Of a stretch of 64,000 nt of DNA, positions 27,538 to 39,494 are shown piece by piece. Position numbers and translations under genes: made by a program. The DNA comes from Salinivirgaceae bacterium (GTDB taxonomy: Bacteria; Bacteroidota; Bacteroidia; Bacteroidales; SZUA-534). Numbering within the stretch: the stretch's first letter is position 1; every line of letters begins with the position of its first letter. The stretch is taken from positions 853 to 64,852 of the forward strand of contig JAFZKK010000123.1 in assembly GCA_017551905.1 (NCBI GenBank), in the 5' to 3' direction. The notes beneath the pieces were generated by a model. It worked only from the letters and a program-made list of their open reading frames with translations. It searched no databases and had not been told where the DNA came from.

Positions 27538-27569
27538 ATTGTTTTTCATCCTAAAATCAATTATTGATT

Positions 27570-30146
27570 ATGAAAAAGACAATCGCTTCAATATTATCCT
27601 TTTTGCTGGCTGTAGGCTCACTTGCGGGGCAAACAACACCTGTAATACAATGGAAAACAGGCGATTTTACAACAGAATGGGCGGAATATACATGGGATTT
27701 GTCGGAATACATTGACAACGATGTGCAAGAATATGCTGTCTTGTTTCGCTACCAAAGCGGCGGTTGCAAACTGATGGCACGTAATGCGGTTGTAAAAGTT
27801 GACGGAGAGACCATTGCCACGTTCAGCGATGAAGTAAGTTCCTGCGGAAGCGACCCATATTCGTGGACTTGGAAATGGCAAATCGGCAACCAACCCCAAA
27901 CAATGACTGTTACGGCGGAAGTCCGAACCGACGGCGGCACAAAATCTAACGGCAATATCTATGTCATAAAAAACGGCAAGCTCATAATAGACAATGTTGA
28001 AACAATCGGAACAAGCCTGTTTAAGAACAGCACAGGGTTCCGCACGGCAACTATTTCGGGCAATGTTAAAAAGATTGGAAATCAGGCATTTTATGGTTGC
28101 AACGAACTTGAGAACATTCTGATTGACGACTGTGTTGAAGAAATCGGCGAACGCTCCTTTCAACTGTGCGAAAACCTGAAAAAGGTTGAAATTCCTGGTT
28201 CTGTGAAAACGATTGGTAAATTTGCATTCTCGCATATCAATGATTTGCTGTCAGTTACAATAGCCGAAGGAGTGCGGACGATAGCCGACAACGCATTCCA
28301 GCACGCTGCCACCGACGCGACAATCCACATTCCGAATTCCGTTGACAGCATTGGCACTGGACTATCAAAAAATTTCACAATTTATTGCGATGCAGGAAGT
28401 TACATGCATAAATATTGTGCCGATAACAACCGTAATTTCCAAAAACTAATTTTCACAGGAGTTACGCCCAAATATGCACAAACAGTTACCAACTTGAATC
28501 TTTCCGCACTCGACACAATTGGCACAAACCAATTTGCAAATTGTCCGAATCTGCGTAGCGCCACATTGGGATTGTCGCTTAAAAGCATTGGCTCCGAAGC
28601 ATTTAGCGGCAGTCCGATAGTAAAAATCACGGTGTATCCTGACGTTGTTGAAATTGGCGAAAAAGCATTCCACGAGGCGACAATTATCCGAACCGTTGCC
28701 GATTCCTACGCTGAAAAATGGTGCCTTGCTAACGATTATGTTTTGAGCGGTGCAATGGCTGATTTCCACGAATATACGCTCCGCACTTCCTACGAACAAC
28801 ATATAGCGGAACAAAAAGAAGCGTTCAACCAACTGAAACAAACGAATCCTGACTGTCAATATATTATTTTCTCGGAATTGGCTGATTTACAACGCATTCT
28901 CACCAAAGATGATACGCAGGAAAACATGAAAACATATAGTTTTTGGACAAACGATATGATAATAGCCAAACGCTTGTCGGACAGCAAGATAGAAATCACT
29001 TCGTATCTGCTTGAACCCGTAAAAAACGTAACACTCACGTATGTTGGCAATGGTCAAAATCGAGAAATCGCCGTGTTCGACGAAATTCAACCATTGTCAC
29101 GCATTACGCTGAATGTCAGCAATATAAAAGAAAATTCTTTTCAGATTTCGTCGGACGACCAACTGTACAAAAAAGTGAAAGCGATACGGATGCACACGGA
29201 GATTTCGTTTATCCTGCCTGAATCCGCACCCGACGATGGTGCTTTGGGACATATTCCGCTCACACCAGTCCACGCCCGAGAGTGGATTTTCCTTTTAACA
29301 AATTATGCAAACCTCATAAGCACAGCGGATTACGAGGAAATGCTCTATTCTATGCAAGGACAACTCTTCGACGATGCACAACGGTCACATTACCTATCGG
29401 AAGATGAACTTCGGCAACTTTATGCTAATATTTTGAACTATCCGCATTTGAATGTGGGCATTATGCAAGGGGCAAACGGTCTGGCTTCGAGCAATGCACA
29501 GACGCTTGCTATAAAAGAACGGGCTTTACTCACCTTCCATAAAAAAGGCGGTGCGTTGGCGCTGGTAACGCATGAATTATCGCATTGTTTGGGCTACAAG
29601 CACGAGGACGGAAATATGGTGGTAGCCGTGAACGAGGCTGGTGAACGGGTTTCTGTAACCGATGCGGTAAATTTTTCAAGCACAGCCGATTACACCGTTA
29701 ACGAAATTGGCGACAAATGTTGGCGCATTTATCCTGATTATCACCTACTTGAAACCTACAATTTGTTTTGGAACGATTATTTCCATTTCCCAACGGAAGA
29801 AAACAAAGTTACATACCCTGAACCAAAGGTAACATACGGTGAAACGGAAGAAATCGAGGAAATTTTCATTGAGGATTACAGTGACGAAGATTATAACGAT
29901 GATGCGGACAACAACAACCAAAACCCCGAAACCTCTGTAAACGAACAATTTACCAACATAAATATCTACGCCCACGGTCGCACAATTGTGGTTGAAAACG
30001 CCAGCGATGTAATTTTTGTTTACAATGCCATGGGAAGATTGGTCGGTAGAGACGTTGCGCGCAACGTCTCTACAATAAATATCAATGATTCAGGCGTTTA
30101 TATTGTGAAAATTGGAAACTTGGCGAAGAAAATTATTGTAGAATAG
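27570..30146 (+). CDS. T9SS cargo 1: beta-rich domain + BspA-type LRR + metzincin-like protease + acidic linker + CTD
   Basis: LRR_5-type repeats (IGNQAFYGCNELENILI); HELSHCLGYKHEDGNM at 29571; CTD YNAMGRLV...GVYIVKIG..KKIIVE. Confidence 0.85.
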   Translation: MKKTIASILSFLLAVGSLAGQTTPVIQWKTGDFTTEWAEYTWDLSEYIDNDVQEYAVLFRYQSGGCKLMARNAVVKVDGETIATFSDEVSSCGSDPYSWTWKWQIGNQPQTMTVTAEVRTDGGTKSNGNIYVIKNGKLIIDNVETIGTSLFKNSTGFRTATISGNVKKIGNQAFYGCNELENILIDDCVEEIGERSFQLCENLKKVEIPGSVKTIGKFAFSHINDLLSVTIAEGVRTIADNAFQHAATDATIHIPNSVDSIGTGLSKNFTIYCDAGSYMHKYCADNNRNFQKLIFTGVTPKYAQTVTNLNLSALDTIGTNQFANCPNLRSATLGLSLKSIGSEAFSGSPIVKITVYPDVVEIGEKAFHEATIIRTVADSYAEKWCLANDYVLSGAMADFHEYTLRTSYEQHIAEQKEAFNQLKQTNPDCQYIIFSELADLQRILTKDDTQENMKTYSFWTNDMIIAKRLSDSKIEITSYLLEPVKNVTLTYVGNGQNREIAVFDEIQPLSRITLNVSNIKENSFQISSDDQLYKKVKAIRMHTEISFILPESAPDDGALGHIPLTPVHAREWIFLLTNYANLISTADYEEMLYSMQGQLFDDAQRSHYLSEDELRQLYANILNYPHLNVGIMQGANGLASSNAQTLAIKERALLTFHKKGGALALVTHELSHCLGYKHEDGNMVVAVNEAGERVSVTDAVNFSSTADYTVNEIGDKCWRIYPDYHLLETYNLFWNDYFHFPTEENKVTYPEPKVTYGETEEIEEIFIEDYSDEDYNDDADNNNQNPETSVNEQFTNINIYAHGRTIVVENASDVIFVYNAMGRLVGRDVARNVSTININDSGVYIVKIGNLAKKIIVE
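30046..30073. repeat. GTAG-type REP-like perfect palindrome inside the CTD coding region
   Basis: GTAGAGACGTTGCG|CGCAACGTCTCTAC is its own reverse complement (28 bp). Confidence 0.85.
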
Positions 30147-30149
30147 AAC

Positions 30150-33100
30150 ATGAAAAAGATATTCGCTTCAATACTATCGTTTTTGCTGGCAGTTTGCTCG
30201 CTTTCGGCACAAACGATTATCGACAGCGTTCTGTATATTGCCGAAGGCACAAAAACAATTGTGACCGATGCCTATCGCGAGAACAACGATTTCAACAAAG
30301 TGGTGATTCCTCAATCGGTTACGAAGATTCAGGGCAATGCGTTTTTCAAATGCGAAAATCTTCGGGAAGTTGTTATTCCTGATGGAGTTACGTCGATGGG
30401 ACAACAGATTTTCTGGGGTTGCAAATCGTTGGAGAAAGTGAACCTTCCGACAGGCATAAGCGAGATTCCGCTGCGGTGCTTTCAAGGCTGTACGTCGCTG
30501 AAAACCATTGCGATACCCGATAATATCAAAACTATTGGAAGCCACGCCTTCTATAATAGTGGTATCGAGCAACTTACAATCCCCGAAAGTGTTACCGCAA
30601 TCAACAAGAATGCCCTCAACACTTCGAGCCTGAAAACCATTGAAATACCCGAATCGGTGACGGAACTTGGCGAACTTGTGTTCAACAAAAATACGGTAAT
30701 CAGCACCAAGAACGAATATGTGCGAAACTATGTGCTTGAAAACGAATATCAACTCGCTGATAGTTATACGATTACCGATGGCGTGCTTGTCGTCCAAGAA
30801 GGAATAAAAACAATTTCTGAAAACATGTTCCGTGGCAACCGCGAGATTACAGAAATCAAGCTGCCGCTGACGTGCGAAAAGATTTGTCAATATGCGTTCG
30901 CTGAAATGCCGTTCCTCATGAAAATCAGCGGATTGGACAACGTGAAAACCATTGAGCGGAGCGTGTTCTACAAATGTTGGAATCTTGCCGAGGTATCGAC
31001 TTTGCAAAAAGTTGAATCTATTGGAATCAATGCGTTCAAACATTGCACACGGCTACGCAGTCTGTACGTGCCGCCAACGCTTACCTCAATCGGTAGCGAG
31101 GCGTTTTATGGCAACACGGTCATTGTGGCCGATGAAAATTCGTATGTACGGCAATGGTTGTCGGATGCCACAAACTGCCCACATTTCACCATTCTGACGA
31201 AACTTCCTGAAAATGAGCAAGAAAGTGATTCGCGCAATATTGATTTCTTTTGCGAAACTGGTTGGAGCCAGTCCGATTTTTTGCTCGATGCAATTCCGTC
31301 GCCTGGTGTTGAACGGCTTGGCTGTTGGTGTACGGCACTCTCGCAAATGCTTTATAATCTGAAAGTTGTACCAACAGGAACAACAGATTATCTGTATAAA
31401 AATTACGGCACGACAACAACGGTCGATTTCGATGCGGAACAAATTGATTTCTCGAAAATCCTGAAAGAACTCGATGGGAACGCTTCAGTTGAAGAAAAGC
31501 GAATGACCTCGCTCTATTGCTGGTATTGCCTTGCCGCAATGGGTGCGAAACACAATAGTTCGGCGTTTCGCAATACACTCGAAACGTATTATCCTGTCAA
31601 GACTTCGCAAATTTATTCGTCGGCAGGACGAGAGCAAGTCGAGTCGTTTTTGCTTGAACATTTGCAAAATAAGCGTATTGTGATGGCATACCGCGAAGGC
31701 AGTGGCACGGGGCACGCCATGTGCATTGATGGTATCCGCTTTGTTGGCGGCACCACATATGTGCATTTCAACTGGGGTTGGGGACACACAAGCGATGGCT
31801 GGTACGACCTTTGGGATGTGTGGAATACGGCTGTCGTTCTACTCGATGAGCCGTCGTTTTACCTGATGGGAATCGAGAAAAGCGAAGAGAATAATGGCGG
31901 CGGCAACACACAAAATATGGACTATCCAGAACAAAGCTCAACATGTTGGGAATCAGGCGATTTTACGATAGATTGGACTACCTATATTTGGAAATTCAAC
32001 AACAACGATTTGGTCAAAGGCGAAAATCTTATCAGTTTCACATATACCGATGGCAACACATTGAGCATGAAAGATGCCGAAATTTATGCCGACGGCAAAC
32101 TAATCTCATTTGATGAGGCAGAATACACTGCCGACAAAAAACAAACGATACTGTATAATTTCACATTGGGATTTATTCCTAACCAAATCATTATCAAGGC
32201 ACAAGCCCACACCAACGATGGGATAAACTCAAGTGGAACTATCGGCATGAATTTGCCAGAATACAGCGCTCCTGCCGATAAAGTAATGAAGTTCCAACAA
32301 TTCAAAACCGCCGACGGGAAGGGCGTAATTGGCTGTTACACAAATATTCCGCTTTACACGGAATATGAGCAGATTGAGCGTTTGGTGATTAACTGCCACG
32401 GTTCGCCACCATTGCCCGATGAATTTTTCAAAACAGCCTACGAGCAACTTGCCTCATACGGTTCCAATTGTTTGCGGACGTCGTTGATTGTCGCTCCGTG
32501 GTTCTATTCAAAAGCAACAATCACAACTGATTGGCTCGATAACATGATTTTCTTTGCTGGCGAGCAATCGTCGGGAGCGAGCAATTCTATGTTGATAGAC
32601 GAAACGCAAATCAATCTTTCGGCATTCGATTATCTCGACCAAATTATTGAATATGTGCTGTCGTCGAGCGATTTTCCGAATGTCAAGGAAGTTTGGGTGA
32701 TGGGAATGAGTGCTGGCGGACGGCTGATGCAACGCTACTCAATGCTGAACGCCGTTCAAAACAATTATCCGACGATTGATTTCAAATATGTGTGCAAAGC
32801 CATTCCCGACTATCTGCACCCCAACAAGGACGCACTTTCCACCTCTGAAATACAGAGTTATATGGAACGAAACAATTTGTCGCCCGAAAACGTGATTGAG
32901 CAATATAAAACGAGAAAAATCCTTTACATAACTGGCACAAAAGACAACCAACAGTATTTGGACAATATGGATGCTTTTGAGCTGAACGTCAAAGAATTAT
33001 GTGGTGATAATTACAACGAAACAAAGTTGTTTTACAAACTTGACGGTGCTGGTCATTCCGAGCCTTCGCTGACTAAAAGTGAGTTGGTTAAAGAATTTTT

Positions 33101-33359
33101 GTGGGGAGAAAACAGCGAGGAAAACAACAAGCCAAACCCCGAAACCTCTGTAACCGAACAATTTGCCAACATAAATATCTACGCCCAAGGCCACACCATT
33201 GTTGTTGAAAATGCCACCGACGAAATCCGCGTTTATGATGTTATGGGGCGGTTGGTTGGTAGAGACGTTGCGCGCAACGTCTCCACAATAAATATCAATG
33301 ATTCAGGTGTTTATATTGTGAAAATTGGTGGATTGGCGAAGAAGATTATTGTAGAATAA
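30150..33359 (+). CDS. T9SS cargo 2: two LRR blocks + peptidase C10 + beta-rich domain + alpha/beta hydrolase + CTD
   Basis: C10 motifs WSQ, LGCWCTALSQ, GHAMCIDG, HFNWGWG; hydrolase motifs GMSAGG, GTKD, GAGH; CTD. Confidence 0.85.
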   Translation: MKKIFASILSFLLAVCSLSAQTIIDSVLYIAEGTKTIVTDAYRENNDFNKVVIPQSVTKIQGNAFFKCENLREVVIPDGVTSMGQQIFWGCKSLEKVNLPTGISEIPLRCFQGCTSLKTIAIPDNIKTIGSHAFYNSGIEQLTIPESVTAINKNALNTSSLKTIEIPESVTELGELVFNKNTVISTKNEYVRNYVLENEYQLADSYTITDGVLVVQEGIKTISENMFRGNREITEIKLPLTCEKICQYAFAEMPFLMKISGLDNVKTIERSVFYKCWNLAEVSTLQKVESIGINAFKHCTRLRSLYVPPTLTSIGSEAFYGNTVIVADENSYVRQWLSDATNCPHFTILTKLPENEQESDSRNIDFFCETGWSQSDFLLDAIPSPGVERLGCWCTALSQMLYNLKVVPTGTTDYLYKNYGTTTTVDFDAEQIDFSKILKELDGNASVEEKRMTSLYCWYCLAAMGAKHNSSAFRNTLETYYPVKTSQIYSSAGREQVESFLLEHLQNKRIVMAYREGSGTGHAMCIDGIRFVGGTTYVHFNWGWGHTSDGWYDLWDVWNTAVVLLDEPSFYLMGIEKSEENNGGGNTQNMDYPEQSSTCWESGDFTIDWTTYIWKFNNNDLVKGENLISFTYTDGNTLSMKDAEIYADGKLISFDEAEYTADKKQTILYNFTLGFIPNQIIIKAQAHTNDGINSSGTIGMNLPEYSAPADKVMKFQQFKTADGKGVIGCYTNIPLYTEYEQIERLVINCHGSPPLPDEFFKTAYEQLASYGSNCLRTSLIVAPWFYSKATITTDWLDNMIFFAGEQSSGASNSMLIDETQINLSAFDYLDQIIEYVLSSSDFPNVKEVWVMGMSAGGRLMQRYSMLNAVQNNYPTIDFKYVCKAIPDYLHPNKDALSTSEIQSYMERNNLSPENVIEQYKTRKILYITGTKDNQQYLDNMDAFELNVKELCGDNYNETKLFYKLDGAGHSEPSLTKSELVKEFLWGENSEENNKPNPETSVTEQFANINIYAQGHTIVVENATDEIRVYDVMGRLVGRDVARNVSTININDSGVYIVKIGGLAKKIIVE
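33259..33286. repeat. GTAG-type REP-like palindrome inside the CTD coding region
   Basis: GTAGAGACGTTGCGCGCAACGTCTCCAC, one mismatch from the 30046 copy. Confidence 0.85.
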
Positions 33360-33362
33360 AAC

Positions 33363-35660
33363 ATGAGAAAGATATTCGCTTCAATACTATCCTTTTTGCT
33401 GGCAGTTGGCTCGCTTGTGGCACAAACGATTATTGACAGTGTTCTCTATATTGACGAAGGCACAACCGAAATTCCAAACTGGGAATATCGTGGACAAACT
33501 GACTTCACAAGCGTTGTATTGCCGTCGTCATTGACACGAATCGGGCAAAATGCGTTTCGCGAAACAAATTTGAAAACGGTAATCGTCCCCGAAGGTGTGA
33601 AAACGGTTGACAATCAAGCATTTTATCAATGCAAGGAGTTGGAAGAAATTTCGTTTCCTTCAACGGTTGAAGCCATTCCGTATGCGTGTTTCACAAGTTC
33701 CGAAAAGTTGAGCAAAGTCATTATAAATGAAGGAGTTAAAGAGATTGGCGAATATGCTTTCAATAATTGTGTTTCGCTTACGGAAATAAAAATCCCTGGC
33801 AGTGTAAAGAAAATTGGCGACATGGCTTTTAGAAATTGCACTGGCATTGAAGGACTTACATTGGACGAAGGCATTGAGGAAATTGGTCGTGAGGCGTTTT
33901 CGTCGTGCAGTAACTTGATGGAAATTGTGATTCCCGAAAGTGTGAAAACCATTGGTTATTTGGCATTTTCGAAAAATACGACACTCATTGTAACCGCTGG
34001 TTCCGAGGCTCACAAGTACGCCGTGGAAAACAATTACAAATTCGAGGCTGTGGGCGACGGTGAACTGAATCTTGAAGAATTAACCTTAACAGTTGATAAG
34101 TTACTGGCAGACAATGAATTTATGCATTTCGCCAATGTGCATACGCCACAATCGGAGACTGTGTATGCTGTGGGCGACAATGGCCCTGGCGGAGGAAAAA
34201 TATTTTATGCTAACGAGGCTAACAGCACTTATCTCGAAGTGAAACTGTTGGATGGAACTTTCGATTGGGATGCAGCAAAAACTGCCGCTTTGAACGAAAA
34301 CGGCGGCGGATTTTCCGATTGGCGGCCACCTTCGTCCGAAGAATTAACGCTGATTTACAACGAGAAAGACAATCTTGGGATTGATTTTGGCTCAACACGT
34401 TACTGGTCATTGACTCGCGACGGGCTGAAAAACTCGCCATACGTCTGGTTCATGGATTTTGCCGATGGGAAAACATATCATAACAGTACCGATGGACTTT
34501 CGGCGCAATATGGAGTGGCAATTGTCCGCACAGTTTCCGAAAATCTTGTCGCGGAAGCTGACGGCGACCGCTATGAATTGAGTCCGTATCTGGGCATGTG
34601 GAATCATACCGACGCTCTTGTGGTTGCCCAAGCCTACTCTCAAATAACTGGCGAAGAATGGACTTTGCCGACGGTCAATCAAATGTCAGTTTTCAAAAAA
34701 ACGGGTGTGGTTTCGGAACCGCACAATGGCTCGTACTGGATGAACAATGGCGACAGCGAGAACTCGTCGTATTTTGAATTGCCAAACGGAACATACGGCA
34801 AAAGTGCGTCGGAGAAGGTTAGGTACATTCGTTTGATAAAAGTTTCAAATGCTTCTGATGTAAGCAATTGCGTATTTTTGAATTTAAAAACGCATTGGAA
34901 CCAAAATGGTGACTACAGGCTTGCCTTTACCGATGACACATTTATGGGTTGCGGCAACCTTGCCATTGCGCAAATTCTTCTGTATCACAAACTTCTGCCG
35001 AAAAACATGACAATCGACCTATCGAAAGTTGAGAACGAACTGACGGAGAACACGCCGCAGGAAAACAAACTTGAAACTTCACGTTACATTTATGCCGTGT
35101 CGTCGAAAAAAGTGGTTGAGAACTTCGATGTTGAGCGCAATGTTTATGAATATCCGTCGGAAATTAAGAAGGCAGAAATGGAGCAACTAATTGATAATGA
35201 GATTTCTGAAAACCGTCCGATGATGATTCATTGCTACACTGCCGACAAGAGCCGCGACCACGCCATAGTGGTTGACGGCGCACGATATGTTGGCGGCAAA
35301 TTTCAGGTTCATTTGCTCTTTGGTTGGGACGGCGACTACGATGGCTGGTTCTACCTTTGGGAACCGATAAACACCACAATGATGAATCTTGACAACGAGT
35401 ATCGCGGAATTGAAACGTATGTGCCGAAAAATGGCACCGAAACCTCTGTAACCGAACAATTTGCCAATATAAATATCTACGCCCATGGCCGCACCATTGT
35501 GGTTGAAAACGCCCAAGACGAAATCCGCGTTTATGATGTTATGGGGCGGTTGGTTTGTAGGGATGCGATTCATCGCGTCTGCACACGAATAACCGTCAAT
35601 GATTCAGGCATTTATATTGTGAAAATTGGTAATTTGGCGAAGAAAATCCGTATAGATTAA
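33363..35660 (+). CDS. T9SS cargo 3: LRR + DUF1566/Lcl-like (CLec-type) domains + peptidase C10 + CTD
   Basis: YAVGDNGPGGGKIFY, DWRPPSSEEL and YWS motifs; C10 motifs WNQ, MGCGNLAIAQ, DHAIVVDG, FGWDGDYDGWF; CTD. Confidence 0.82.
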   Translation: MRKIFASILSFLLAVGSLVAQTIIDSVLYIDEGTTEIPNWEYRGQTDFTSVVLPSSLTRIGQNAFRETNLKTVIVPEGVKTVDNQAFYQCKELEEISFPSTVEAIPYACFTSSEKLSKVIINEGVKEIGEYAFNNCVSLTEIKIPGSVKKIGDMAFRNCTGIEGLTLDEGIEEIGREAFSSCSNLMEIVIPESVKTIGYLAFSKNTTLIVTAGSEAHKYAVENNYKFEAVGDGELNLEELTLTVDKLLADNEFMHFANVHTPQSETVYAVGDNGPGGGKIFYANEANSTYLEVKLLDGTFDWDAAKTAALNENGGGFSDWRPPSSEELTLIYNEKDNLGIDFGSTRYWSLTRDGLKNSPYVWFMDFADGKTYHNSTDGLSAQYGVAIVRTVSENLVAEADGDRYELSPYLGMWNHTDALVVAQAYSQITGEEWTLPTVNQMSVFKKTGVVSEPHNGSYWMNNGDSENSSYFELPNGTYGKSASEKVRYIRLIKVSNASDVSNCVFLNLKTHWNQNGDYRLAFTDDTFMGCGNLAIAQILLYHKLLPKNMTIDLSKVENELTENTPQENKLETSRYIYAVSSKKVVENFDVERNVYEYPSEIKKAEMEQLIDNEISENRPMMIHCYTADKSRDHAIVVDGARYVGGKFQVHLLFGWDGDYDGWFYLWEPINTTMMNLDNEYRGIETYVPKNGTETSVTEQFANINIYAHGRTIVVENAQDEIRVYDVMGRLVCRDAIHRVCTRITVNDSGIYIVKIGNLAKKIRID
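35557..35584. repeat. Second type of GTAG REP-like imperfect palindrome at the same CTD position
   Basis: GTAGGGATGCGATTCATCGCGTCTGCAC; stem GGATGCGAT/ATCGCGTCT with G-T pairs. Confidence 0.65.
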
Positions 35661-35672
35661 TTTCAAGAATAT

Positions 35673-36410
35673 ATGAGACCTTTTAAGAAAGAAAATACAA
35701 TACGCACTATCTCGTTCAAACATGAGAAAATTACCAAAATTGGACTGTTGATTTTGCAGTTATGCTGTTTGGCAATTTTGTTGATTATAAGGCCGCATTT
35801 AGACTCTGATAAACTGGCTTTGGTAATCTATACGACATTTGGATTTGGATGGTTTTCTGGTTTGCTGTTCGGACTTTTTGAGCAAAAAACGGTAAAACTC
35901 TATTCCATTATTTCAATGTGCCTCGTTCTTGTTGTCGTACTCGGAATTTCTCTTTGGGATAGCAGAAGCACAACGTTAGATACGTCTCTGATTATTATTT
36001 TAATGCTATTGTTTGTGTTGGCTTGGAGACTATGTTGGACATTCTTATTGCCTTCGAGCATCGTTCTAGCATCCATATCGTCAATCTCCACGATTTGCCA
36101 AATATTGATTTTATATGGTTTTGGTTTGCCTTCTTCAGTTTATTACGCAGTGGCAACAATAATGCTGGATATTTGGTATCTTTGGCTTATAAGCCAAAAA
36201 GAATCTGGCCTGCATTTTTACTCCAGTGTTGTTGTTTTTATATTATATTATTTGTTCTTTGGGCTCGATGTGCAATTCTATTTAGATTTGCTTCTAACTT
36301 CCTTAATAATTATGATATGTTTCAATGACGAGCTCGATAAGTCATGGTGGATTCTCGGTACAATGCTACTTACTGGAGCAATTTTCGGTGTGGATTATTT
36401 CTTTAGTTAA
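35673..36410 (+). CDS. AT-rich multi-pass membrane protein of unknown function
   Basis: About 8-9 hydrophobic helices, no recognisable motif; starts 12 bp after cargo 3. Confidence 0.65.
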   Translation: MRPFKKENTIRTISFKHEKITKIGLLILQLCCLAILLIIRPHLDSDKLALVIYTTFGFGWFSGLLFGLFEQKTVKLYSIISMCLVLVVVLGISLWDSRSTTLDTSLIIILMLLFVLAWRLCWTFLLPSSIVLASISSISTICQILILYGFGLPSSVYYAVATIMLDIWYLWLISQKESGLHFYSSVVVFILYYLFFGLDVQFYLDLLLTSLIIMICFNDELDKSWWILGTMLLTGAIFGVDYFFS

Positions 36411-36481: not shown

Positions 36482-36506
36482 GATGATTTATTTTAAGAGG
36501 TTGGAA

Positions 36507-39494
36507 ATGAAAAAGATATTCGCTTCAATATTATCCTTTTTGCTGGCAATTGGCTCGCTGCATGCGCAAACCATTATCGACAGCGTTCTCTATATCGCCG
36601 AAGGCACAACCGAAATTGGTTACAAAGCCTATTACGGCAACAATGAAATCAAAAAAGTGGTGATTCCTTCGACGGTTACAAAAATCGGCGGTCTTGCATT
36701 CCACAACTGTACAAATCTTGAAGAAATCGACATTCCCGCATCGGTTACAACTATTGGCGATGCCGCATTCCAGAACGATTCCTCGCTTACGAAAGTTACT
36801 CTGCACGAAGGTCTTACCAATTTGAGTTACAGGCTTTTCAAAAGCTGCGTGAGCCTCACGGAAATCACCATTCCGTCAACCGTCACCAAATTTGGCGATT
36901 ATTCGCTTGCCGAGTGCGACAATCTGACAACAATCAGGGTTGACCGATACTCCGAGGCGCACACATATTTCTGCAAAGATTCACGTCTTGCATTTACCGA
37001 CAATGAGCCGAAACAGAGCCACGAGCAATGGCTTGCCACAGCCACACGCGACATTATCGAGGACAGCGTTCTCTACATAAAGCCAGGGACAACTGTCATT
37101 AATGGCGACGCCTACATTTATGCCAAAGCCTTTACAAAGGTTGTCATCCCAAATACCGTTACAGAAATCGGAAAACAAGCATTCTTTGGTACAAATGTCC
37201 GTGAAGTTACCATTCCTGGAAGTGTCCAAATCATTAAAAATTCGGCATTCTATTGCTCACACCTCGAGAAAGCCATACTCGAAGAAGGCGTGAAAGAAAT
37301 TGACTCTTACGCATTTAACACTTACCGAAAACTATATATCTATGTGCCGAACTCGGTGGACACTTTGGCCGCCAACAATGGAGTTACAAATGGTGAGGCG
37401 GTGTGGACGGTTGTGCAGGGCAGCTATGCTGAGGAGTATGTGAAAAGCCGTTGTTCGTACAACATTGATTACACACAACCGTATTCCGACTATTCGGGCG
37501 AAACGGCGTTGAAAATCAGTATAAATGGAAATATTCCTGCCGATTATTTCAAGAACTGCCCCAATCTGCAATCGGTTGACATAGGGCCTGATGTTACCGA
37601 AATCCTTTCTGGCATATTTGCCGATAATCTGACCTTGCGGGCGAAACGCAACACCTACGCCGACACGTGGGCGAAACAAAACGGCTACTATCTGAGCGGC
37701 GTGCTTGCCGATTTGAACGTTTACACCAAAGACGCATCGAAAAAGATTGAGGAGGATTTCACCCGAATCTTGTGCGATGATGATTCGTATGCCAATTGGA
37801 CTTCCTACAAATTTGTGATACAGCAACCGCTGAAATTGGAGGAGGTTGACAACAAACTTGTTCTTACATCGTTTATGCTCTATCCATGTGAAAATGTTAC
37901 AGTTACCGCAAAAGACGGCAAACCACTAATCAGCAACAAGACAATCCAACCGCTGACACGCACCGTTTTGTGCGATTTCGATTTTCTTACCGACAGCGTT
38001 GAAAACTTCACGCTTACCACCGACGATGCGTTTTATAAACGGCTCGTTTCCATTCCTACAGAATGGTCAATATCGTACGACGGACGCATTTATCGACCAG
38101 GAAAATATGAGAACGATTTAATTAGACCGATGCAACCTGTCTTTGCGAGGGAATATATTGCCGGCATATACAATGTGGCGTATATAGCCGGAAGTCCCGA
38201 ATACGCCGCGCGCTGTTATCAAGCGGTAGAAGAAAAAAAACTTGTAACAAACGAGGAACTCACTGAATTTCTTACGAAAGAGCAAATGGACAATCTTTTG
38301 AAAAAAGCATCAAAATGGTCAATTATGCTCGGAAGATGTCAGGGTGGATTGAGTGTGGCAGGGGGACAAGCAATATGGTTGGATAACTCGTGGCTTTTAG
38401 GTCTTTCTTGTGGGACACCGAATAGTTTTTGGCACGAGCACTCGCATAATATGGGTTGGGGGCACGAGGACGGAAATATGTGCAACGATGGTCGCCCTGC
38501 ACCATATAATTTGGATTGGCCTGGAATCGGCAACCAAGTATATAAGGAGGAATTTCAAAAGGGAACTCCGCCCTATCTGGAAGGCAAGTTATTTTTCAAC
38601 TCAAATTTATTCTCCTACAATGAACTTCATTTGCCCGACATTCCCGACGATGTTGTCATAGACAGCATTCTATACATTACAGAGGGTGTCCCTCTTGCTG
38701 ATTCGCATAAGGAACAGACTGATTTTACAAAAATTGTTATTCCGTCGTCAGTCGAAGTAATCACAAGTTCAGCCTTTTACGGAACAAAAATCGAAAATGT
38801 GGAAATTCCTTCAACTGTTACGATAATAAAGAAATTGGCATTTCATTCATGCGAAGAATTGAAATCGGTAACCATTCCCAACAGCGTGAAGTCAATAGGC
38901 GATGCGACATTCCAGAACTGCACATCGCTTACTTCGGTTGAAATTCCCAACAGCTTGCGCGAACTGAACACCAAGCTTTTCAAAGGTTCGGGTCTGACCG
39001 AAATCACCATTCCTGGCACTGTCAAAGTTATTGGGAAAGAGGCCTTTGCCGATTGCCAGAATTTGAAAACCGTGGTTATTGAGGACGGTGTGCGGAAAAT
39101 CGACAACAATGCGTTTTACAACACAGGAATCGACACGATTGAAATTCCCGAAAGTGTTACCATTCTTGGCAAAAACATAACTTCGAAAGGCGTTGTCTGG
39201 GTGGTTGAAAAAGATAGTTATGCACACACTTATGCAATCGAAAACAATATAACATTCAAAATAGAAAACAGTGAAGGCAACGACACCGAAACCTCTGTAA
39301 CCGAACAATTTACCAATATAAACATCTACGTCCACGGTCGCACCATTGTTGTTGAAAATGCCACCAACGAAATCCGTGTTTATGATGTTATGGGGCGGTT
39401 GGTTGGCACAACCTCAACAAGAATAACCGTCAATGATTCAGGCGTTTATATTGTGAAAATTGGTGGCGCGGCAAAAAAGGTTTTTGTGTGGTAA
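36507..39494 (+). CDS. T9SS cargo 4: LRR blocks + metzincin-like protease + LRR block + CTD
   Basis: Signal peptide shared with the paralogues (start taken at MKKIF); HEHSHNMGWGHEDGNM at 38433; three LRR blocks each opened by an (I)DSVLYI-type cap; CTD without the palindrome. Confidence 0.85.
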   Translation: MKKIFASILSFLLAIGSLHAQTIIDSVLYIAEGTTEIGYKAYYGNNEIKKVVIPSTVTKIGGLAFHNCTNLEEIDIPASVTTIGDAAFQNDSSLTKVTLHEGLTNLSYRLFKSCVSLTEITIPSTVTKFGDYSLAECDNLTTIRVDRYSEAHTYFCKDSRLAFTDNEPKQSHEQWLATATRDIIEDSVLYIKPGTTVINGDAYIYAKAFTKVVIPNTVTEIGKQAFFGTNVREVTIPGSVQIIKNSAFYCSHLEKAILEEGVKEIDSYAFNTYRKLYIYVPNSVDTLAANNGVTNGEAVWTVVQGSYAEEYVKSRCSYNIDYTQPYSDYSGETALKISINGNIPADYFKNCPNLQSVDIGPDVTEILSGIFADNLTLRAKRNTYADTWAKQNGYYLSGVLADLNVYTKDASKKIEEDFTRILCDDDSYANWTSYKFVIQQPLKLEEVDNKLVLTSFMLYPCENVTVTAKDGKPLISNKTIQPLTRTVLCDFDFLTDSVENFTLTTDDAFYKRLVSIPTEWSISYDGRIYRPGKYENDLIRPMQPVFAREYIAGIYNVAYIAGSPEYAARCYQAVEEKKLVTNEELTEFLTKEQMDNLLKKASKWSIMLGRCQGGLSVAGGQAIWLDNSWLLGLSCGTPNSFWHEHSHNMGWGHEDGNMCNDGRPAPYNLDWPGIGNQVYKEEFQKGTPPYLEGKLFFNSNLFSYNELHLPDIPDDVVIDSILYITEGVPLADSHKEQTDFTKIVIPSSVEVITSSAFYGTKIENVEIPSTVTIIKKLAFHSCEELKSVTIPNSVKSIGDATFQNCTSLTSVEIPNSLRELNTKLFKGSGLTEITIPGTVKVIGKEAFADCQNLKTVVIEDGVRKIDNNAFYNTGIDTIEIPESVTILGKNITSKGVVWVVEKDSYAHTYAIENNITFKIENSEGNDTETSVTEQFTNINIYVHGRTIVVENATNEIRVYDVMGRLVGTTSTRITVNDSGVYIVKIGGAAKKVFVW

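Follow-up and report, generated by a model that had tools for sequence, protein, structure and literature searches.

The 64,000-nt window analysed here, part of contig C136 of the 3.15-Mb, 161-contig assembly of a Salinivirgaceae bacterium, carries four genes (cargos 1 to 4, all features on the forward strand) whose products end in sorting domains of the type IX secretion system (T9SS). In three of these C-terminal domains (CTDs), one fixed site is occupied in frame by a member of a family of repetitive extragenic palindromes (REPs). Cargo 1 (27564..30146) and cargo 4 (36483..39494) encode BspA-type leucine-rich repeat (LRR) proteins, cargo 2 (30150..33359) combines BspA-type LRR with Peptidase_C10, and cargo 3 (33363..35660) contains LRR_5, Lcl_C and Peptidase_C10.

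Translated palindromes in the sorting domains

The CTD of cargo 1 (29904..30146) was recognized as a T9SS type A sorting domain. TIGR04183 matches reached 24.1 bits (cargo 1) and 24.0 bits against a cut-off of 23, across the last 80 residues and thus at the C-terminus. The other three CTDs are those of cargo 2 (33117..33359), cargo 3 (35418..35660) and cargo 4 (39252..39494). In Pfam, the window CTDs scored 19-22.5 bits with PF18962, under its cut-off of 27, and they also touch DUF6383. The genome encodes T9SS machinery, including SprA (2435.8 bits) and GldM/PorM (356.6 bits).

The palindrome of cargo 1 (30046..30073) is perfect over 28 nt. It runs from GTAG to CTAC with arms that are 100% complementary, lies in frame within the open reading frame (ORF) 27564-30146, and is read as (G)RDVARNVST. 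Its core, TTGCGCGCAA, represents apical type A. Cargo 2 has a type A REP at 33259..33286 with one change (CTAC to CCAC), which leaves a single mismatch in the outer stem. In cargo 3, the REP at 35557..35584 also starts with GTAG, has a core unlike that of type A (CGATTCATCG, type B), and is read as (C)RDAIHRVCT; it is decayed, with about 8 inner pairs left. Cargo 4 is REP-less. Its site is GRLVGTTSTRIT, with the peptide GRLVGTTSTR, and is 5 alignment columns shorter than that of cargo 3; the homologous place is taken by a short hairpin-coding stretch (GTTSTR, 39405..39422). MGRLV directly precedes all four sites. Coordinates and sequences agree with the preliminary description of this DNA, which had recorded the perfect 28-bp palindrome, its one-change copy, the second GTAG hairpin and the five-codon-shorter cargo 4. 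Two 9-nt arms with at most 3 mismatches were matched twice in the window (0.00 expected from 100 shuffles), and by our own arithmetic a perfect 28-nt palindrome is expected by chance about 2e-4 times per 64 kb.

An AlphaFold2 model of the CTD, built from 95 sequences, has a mean predicted local distance difference test (pLDDT) score of 84.8 and seven strands. In this model, the REP-coded residues 52-61 (pLDDT about 96-97) complete strand 50-54, make up the turn 55-58 (VARN) and begin strand 59-63; therefore, the center of the DNA palindrome is predicted to code the turn of the protein. The five PDB entries that Foldseek ranked highest for the model are all T9SS CTDs, from RgpB and from substrates within translocon complexes, at weak E values of 1.3e-3 to 1.2e-2, none at or below 1e-3. 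From the end of the REP to the stop there are 23-24 codons (23 in cargo 1), and the last 23 residues carry GxYxVK and KxxxV-type motifs. In P. gingivalis, according to the available text of PMC5445135, the last 22 residues, comprising the final two strands with the motifs PxGxYVV and KxxxK, are reported to be sufficient for secretion and thus to be the minimal export signal.

A 245-aa ORF (35673-36410) without a Pfam match at E <=0.01 lies between cargos 3 and 4.

The REP family and its RAYT genes

These palindromes belong to a family of REPs with a GTAG head. Strict GTAG...CTAC hairpins number 37 in the genome, compared with 0-5 for each of 12 other four-letter heads, and looser rules yield 66 REP-like copies. 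Fifty-one of the 66 lie outside long ORFs, in line with the original proposal that the palindromes are REPs; the family has extragenic copies in the same genome. The others are found in sorting domains (10 copies, one of them at C91:9197, 23 codons before the stop of a 523-aa ORF), RAYT genes (2, see below) and methyltransferase-like ORFs (2, in paralogous ORFs of 822 and 879 aa), with 1 ambiguous. The arms GTAGAGACG...CGTCTCTAC are conserved, and the central 10-11 nt are variable yet self-complementary. The exact arms pattern occurs in 15/15 sister genomes of the genus, with 1-31 copies each, and in 7/25 genomes of other genera or families of the order. A reversed control pattern had 0 matches in all sister and outside genomes scanned.

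Genes for REP-associated tyrosine transposases (RAYTs) are present in the genome as well. The Y1_Tnp/RAYT-like matches sit on C94, C36, C104, C89, C24 and C105, all of them contigs other than C136, and the window is thus free of RAYTs, as had been stated. The Pfam model Y1_Tnp matches two genes: the one on C94 is IS200-like (NF033573, 66.5 bits), and the one on C36 passes the REP-associated transposase model NF047646 (95.5 bits, cut-off 80). Two further genes, at C104:36470-37051 (L003:971-1552) and C89:9078-9704 (L004:3279-3905), match NF047646 at 57.2 and 59.6 bits, below the cut-off of 80, with E values of 1.7e-15 and 3e-16; their match is split by an internal REP. We consider them RAYT subclass 2.4-like. 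Proteins of this type, of 194 and 209-215 aa, have the motifs PNHLHL/PNHVHA, AWQ and YIQNNV/YIENNV, the last with V in place of the final P. Subclass 2.4 of Cyanobacteria and Bacteroidetes is characterized by NH[IFV]H, WQ and YIxNNP and a length of 194 aa, and REP insertions within the gene are called its "remarkable and unique feature" in the text available of Quentin et al. (2018, PMC6006769). Protein search also matched a further RAYT-like copy on C24 and, on C105, a fragment.

REPs lie both around and within the C104 and C89 genes. At the C104 gene, one REP type occurs three times: inverted 110 nt before the gene, within it, and 32 nt past its end. The C89 gene is preceded by REPs and contains a REP doublet, which recurs about 450 nt upstream of the gene. 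The REPs inside both genes are translated just after the HUH strand. A protein search identified such RAYT genes in 11/15 sister genomes. Of 14 RAYT loci, 12 retained an intact ORF by a motif filter, and 8 of these 12 had an internal REP at the same place. The internal REP agrees in type with the flanking REPs, which suggests local homogenization. A RAYT flanked by the same REPs, proposed earlier as a check on the REP reading, is therefore found in the lineage, both on C104 and C89 and in sister-genome homologues.

Of two other Y1 genes (L010:2025-2501 and L011:1511-2335), one is IS200-like and ends in YIKNQKEHH, and the other is a RAYT with YIHNNP. These features resemble the published subclasses 1.2 and 2.6, respectively, as far as the text of PMC6006769 available to us describes them. 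No REP of the present family adjoins either gene, and the REP nearest to the first is about 2.8 kb off.

Occupancy, DNA-level constraint and turnover

A CTD profile was built from the four window CTDs (three REP-bearing, one without). It gave 401 matches at E <=1e-8 across this genome (24 matches) and the 15 others of the genus, and 115 CTDs were analyzed: these 24 and the 91 top-ranked ones from the 15 sister genomes. A REP-derived hairpin is present in 14/24 CTDs of this genome (8 type A, 5 type B, 1 type I) and in 88/91 of the sister-genome CTDs sampled from the top of the ranking. The CTD REPs fall into at least 9 apical types, all self-complementary. Eighty-four CTDs align gap-free in one register; a few REPs are offset by 1-3 codons, or are 29-nt REPs in another frame.

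Hairpins without a REP are 9-10 residues long and those with one 10-11 (for example, AKRTANNSR and GRDVARNVS), so the REP replaces a hairpin instead of adding a loop. The notion of a "domesticated" REP, put forward in the preliminary description, draws little support, as 10/24 CTDs of this genome are REP-less yet have hairpins of about equal length. In another genus of the same family, one CTD has a type B REP, and its paralogue does not; none of the more distant CTDs examined had a REP. One further CTD locus (L166) is on a 2.5-kb contig filed as a Neisseriaceae metagenome-assembled genome, probably through a binning error.

Codon usage within the REP departs from that of long ORFs genome-wide. 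In counts from 95 CTDs, Arg at REP codon 2 is AGA/AGG in 87/88 cases (12% genome-wide), Cys is TGT in 44/48 (29%), Val is GTC in 79/89 (20%), and Asp is GAC in 86/93. The flanking four- and six-fold degenerate codons are diverse, with entropies of 1.6-2.4 bits for Gly, Arg and Val. A covariation test on 84 sequences, 68 of them distinct, found 83.0% of cells pairing (74.3% in shuffles), two-sided changes in 121 cells (46.6 in shuffles), and a score of 0.371 compared with 0.212 for shuffled alignments (0/500 as high) and 0.08-0.14 for slid structures. Rare codons and covariation together indicate constraint or homogenization at the DNA level. Compensatory substitutions, another check suggested at the outset, thus keep the inner stem, alongside the rare codons. 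The objection foreseen there, that the lineage might hold neither extragenic copies nor a RAYT and that the pairing might be freely broken, falls away because extragenic REPs, RAYTs and compensatory differences are all found.

These data make it extremely improbable that the palindromes are a by-product of peptide selection or of chance, or that the REP family arose in the CTD hairpin. It is true that the peptide is a well-predicted beta-hairpin, and that type A copies of this genome are mostly CTD-borne. The chance expectation, however, is 0.00, and the rare AGR, TGT and GTC codons are retained. The family is also present in genomes G026 (8 copies) and G032 (16), both without a CTD match, and of the 121 or more metagenome stretches that contain the exact 28-mer, the CTD profile of the subfamily matches only 5 of the 121 listed.

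Conserved synonymous sites could also be expected if the hairpin were selected as an mRNA element, for example to stabilize the 3' end or to make ribosomes pause 69 nt upstream of the stop. Such a role could matter most in the tandem arrays, where cargo genes lie 3 nt apart and leave no intergenic room for a REP. Predicted RNA folds are indeed stable at occupied sites (-19.2, -15.8, -13.5 and -4.6 kcal/mol for cargos 1-4; z -5.3 for cargo 1 and -3.4 for cargo 2), and the cargo 4 site, without the hairpin, folds like shuffles (z 0.39). In the text of PMC3733652 available to us, REPs are described as lying mostly downstream of coding regions, where they are thought to act as RNA. A role as RNA would lead one to expect G.U pairs to outnumber A.C mismatches on the sense strand, and the ratios of 76:64 overall and 50:31 for the inner pairs amount to a slight excess that is not decisive. 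Moreover, asymmetric REP types are found in both orientations, cargo 4 and 9 other CTDs of the genome do without the hairpin, and ribosomes would presumably unwind it inside an ORF. On balance, we regard an mRNA function as quite unlikely to be the explanation.

The type of REP turns over at the site. Three cargos were compared with a syntenic array in sister genome G001, and the REP state differs in 3/3 orthologue pairs: cargo 2 (type A) corresponds to type B, cargo 3 (type B) to type A, and cargo 4 (no REP) to a perfect type A. Cargo 4 had been described as an "empty version" of the site. It does lack a REP; because its orthologue in the sister genome carries a perfect REP, it is probably a secondary loss rather than a vacant target. 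In the cargo 3 pair, the divergent tract stops at the 3' edge of the REP and is common to the two G001 CTDs, an indication that paralogues have undergone conversion. Comparison of 112 CTDs gave 6 pairs with >=90% identity in each of the four flank segments; REP type differs in 4 of these 6, the change being limited to the apical 10 nt; the four may represent a single event, because they are built from two sequences per side. On a tree of the flanks, which is weak (about 190 nt), REP type requires 54 changes, compared with at least 65 in 200 shuffles, a hint of decoupling of REP type from its flanks.

The exact 28-mer is also translated beyond this lineage. In 92/121 of the listed metagenome stretches, taken as slices no longer than 508 nt, the REP is crossed by an ORF of >=80 aa, and 29 of those 92 have a Pfam match at E <=0.001: 6 to PF18962, 1 to DUF6383 and the rest to other families, including RAYT, GH97 (three), GH2, UvrC, AlaRS, AcrB, DHQ synthase, EPSP synthase, HAD, Mur ligase, histidine kinase, AMP-binding and methyltransferase. 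Among the matches listed, the 28-mer is in frame in about 18 unrelated Pfam families. At L220, L288, L324, L331 and L292, the REP occupies the same CTD hairpin after G(R/K)x(V/I) in the other frame (VETLRATSLQ), and other metagenome PF18962 CTDs have it where the domain begins or in a preceding hairpin; these must represent separate colonizations. Searching metagenome contigs with a gapped flank pattern for the site alleles of cargos 3 and 4 returned 0 stretches.

The 28-mer is open in two frames (RDVARNVST and VETLRATSLQ), the third being closed by the TAG of GTAG, and both open frames are translated inside housekeeping enzymes (AlaRS, UvrC, DHQ synthase, EPSP synthase and AcrB, among L219-L339). 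Over the same stretches, the base at -1 is T in 64/120 and the base at +1 is A in 63/120; the two are complementary in 31/120, and such seldom-joint flank bases hint at a polar 5'-T junction.

In this genus, a methyltransferase-like protein of 822-879 aa (L004:279-2915) has an in-frame REP 85 residues from the protein end, within a variable linker, where it is read as VE[PT]LRATSLQ. The REPs of these ORFs lie at L004:2631-2658 and C77:7365-7392. Sister-genome orthologues have other apical types in the linker, and out-of-genus homologues have unrelated linker sequence of similar length.

Tail pieces, interpretation and known systems

A second GTAG hairpin follows within 100 nt of the stop in 50/115 CTD genes, with a median start of +28. 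Accordingly, a REP-bracketed cassette, consisting of the REP, the last 23 codons, the stop, about 28 nt and the second REP, might be a mobilizable export tag that a RAYT or REP-REP recombination moves or swaps, replacing tails or tagging new genes. The position of the inner REP, 23-24 codons before the stop, would suit such a tag, given the 22 residues that suffice in P. gingivalis (PMC5445135, as above). A DNA profile of REP plus tail found four pieces without a CTD head in this genome, all of which precede a REP. At C17:71730-72060 (L009:731-1060), there are three tandem units of REP, 23-codon CTD tail and TTGATAATATGTT; the first is the end of a live gene (type A), and the second and third are decayed, of type B, and start exactly at GTAG. 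Two orphan tails begin inside a REP, the one at C82:141-229 at the dyad of a type A REP and the one at C93:2651-2729 at the right edge of a REP remnant; in both cases, a type B REP lies about 30 nt past the stop (C82:141-285, C93:2651-2790).

The four pieces amount to about three independent events, all in one genome, and therefore lend little weight to the earlier idea of a tag that spreads export to new cargo. A search of 163 loci with flanks of 200-400 nt yielded no additional orphan tail, its only matches being the palindromes read from the opposite strand, and neither a new-cargo event nor a non-CTD gene with a gained tail was seen. The apex of the inner REP mostly differs from that of the downstream one (type A is combined with a GTCATAATATGGC-type one, for instance), unlike the two halves of REPINs, the inverted REP doublets thought to be a mobile unit. 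As for recombination breakpoints, whose mapping relative to the REP had been suggested, a hot-spot test was negative there. In a comparison of pairwise identity between adjacent 33-42-nt segments of 112 CTDs, the correlations were 0.44 within one side, 0.37 across the REP and 0.31 within the other side, and discordant and concordant pairs numbered 89:16, 55:11 (across the REP) and 28:9, without an excess at the REP. Flank identity is thus not decoupled across it, and we hold a mobilizable tag to be rather unlikely.

Our preferred reading, to which we assign a probability of roughly three in four, is that a resident in-frame REP codes a beta-hairpin of the CTD, has spread together with the CTDs, and retains its REP character through exchange with other REPs. 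A REP would have entered a tolerant beta-hairpin of a T9SS type A CTD and would have multiplied with it during the expansion of the CTDs and their BspA-LRR/C10 cargo genes. Its likeness to other REPs may be upheld by exchange with them, through short-tract conversion, hairpin-templated repair or RAYT action, or alternatively by selection on the DNA hairpin; selection on the peptide would not explain it. The same hairpin would have been colonized independently in other CTD lineages, making it a recurrently permissive site, and the REP may be a fragile point at which CTD tails duplicate or truncate. The identity of the palindromes as REPs, the fixed site, the near-universal occupancy among sampled CTDs of the genus, the DNA-level conservation and the differing types in orthologues are established.

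Several observations weigh against this reading. The 88/91 figure overstates occupancy, since the sister CTDs were drawn from the top of a ranking that favors REP-bearing CTDs because three of the four profile sequences carry a REP. No clean pair of filled and empty sites shows the insertion event, which is not evident because REP-less CTDs have a hairpin of about equal length. The query matched no RAYT in G001, G005, G010 and G014 (completeness 95, 83, 82 and 98%), though these genomes hold REPs. The rows of the covariation test are related paralogues, so its numbers show a pattern and are not counts of independent events. Finally, the outer pairs 4:27 and 5:26 are unpaired in 30/68 and 51/68 distinct CTD copies, and many CTD copies may therefore no longer be RAYT substrates.

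A bolder version, which we entertain only tentatively and consider doubtful, is that these are live REP sites in coding DNA, where templated exchange between REPs, through a RAYT or hairpin-driven repair, would rewrite the apical 10 nt of the structural beta-hairpin, and that the REP is the 5' edge of a REP-bracketed cassette of about 130 nt with the minimal T9SS export signal, which could be duplicated, displaced and perhaps grafted onto other genes. If this is true, selfish palindromes could enter beta-sandwich domains as structural parts, by way of DNA hairpins that code protein hairpins.

REPs are usually regarded as extragenic, and the in-frame ones known are scattered and presumed neutral. 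In the present genus of rumen Bacteroidales, a REP would be part of the fold of a secretion signal in some hundreds of paralogues. The genus thus offers a natural setting in which to ask if RAYT/REP machinery works within genes, how protein structure accommodates palindromic DNA, and whether REPs contribute to the shuffling of T9SS export tags on expanding BspA-LRR/C10 surface families. For annotation, RDVARNVST, RDAINRV and VETLRATSLQ should be taken as markers of translated REPs and not as protein motifs.

Part of this is already known. Intragenic GTAG REPs, including in-frame ones, have been described in several species (Di Nocera et al. 2013, PMC3733652), as have RAYT-internal REPs (PMC6006769), both according to the main text available. 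The presence of a REP in a secretion tag across a whole paralogue family is new relative to the literature searched; we found no paper there on REPs in T9SS sorting domains, the supplements of PMC3733652 (a list of intragenic REPs) and PMC6006769 (Figure S10) being outside that search.

The system most closely resembles the GTAG REP/RAYT REPtrons of subclass 2.4, as outlined in the available text of PMC6006769. It shares with them the GTAG head, the 28-29-nt palindrome, mostly extragenic copies located after stop codons, and RAYTs flanked by the same REPs; the RAYTs themselves agree in the HUH motif NH[LV]H, in WQ and YI(Q/E)NN, in a length of about 194-215 aa and in the REP inside the gene. 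It differs from the REPtrons described there in its few copies, about 66 per genome, and in having a fifth of these in frame in one protein-domain family, and the C104 and C89 proteins differ from curated RAYTs in scoring 57-60 bits against an NCBIfam cut-off of 80. As with the intragenic GTAG/CGTC REPs of PMC3733652, the palindromes are translated in many unrelated proteins, presumably in tolerant loops. The intragenic REPs in the part of that work available to us are scattered, single and residue-adding, whereas here one site of a paralogue family is occupied nearly genus-wide. Compared with published in-frame REPs, the present ones are also length-neutral, code a structural beta-hairpin, and keep turning over in apical type.

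The window CTDs themselves are like other T9SS type A CTDs (TIGR04183/PF18962; RgpB) in their C-terminal place and, in the predicted model, their seven-strand beta-sandwich, and unlike standard ones in staying under the PF18962 cut-off and in having one hairpin coded by a REP. Rickettsia palindromic elements are inserted in frame in genes, are scattered, and add residues; this last trait is not shared by the CTD and methyltransferase-like sites, which are near length-neutral. There is an analogy to REPINs in the two REPs that bracket the CTD tail about 130 nt apart, although the apices of the two mostly differ, no near-identical inverted pair is formed, and the spacer is coding sequence. A second analogy is to Rhs and contact-dependent inhibition (CDI) loci, which contain displaced orphan C-terminal modules: here, too, decayed copies of a tail are displaced downstream of an intact gene.

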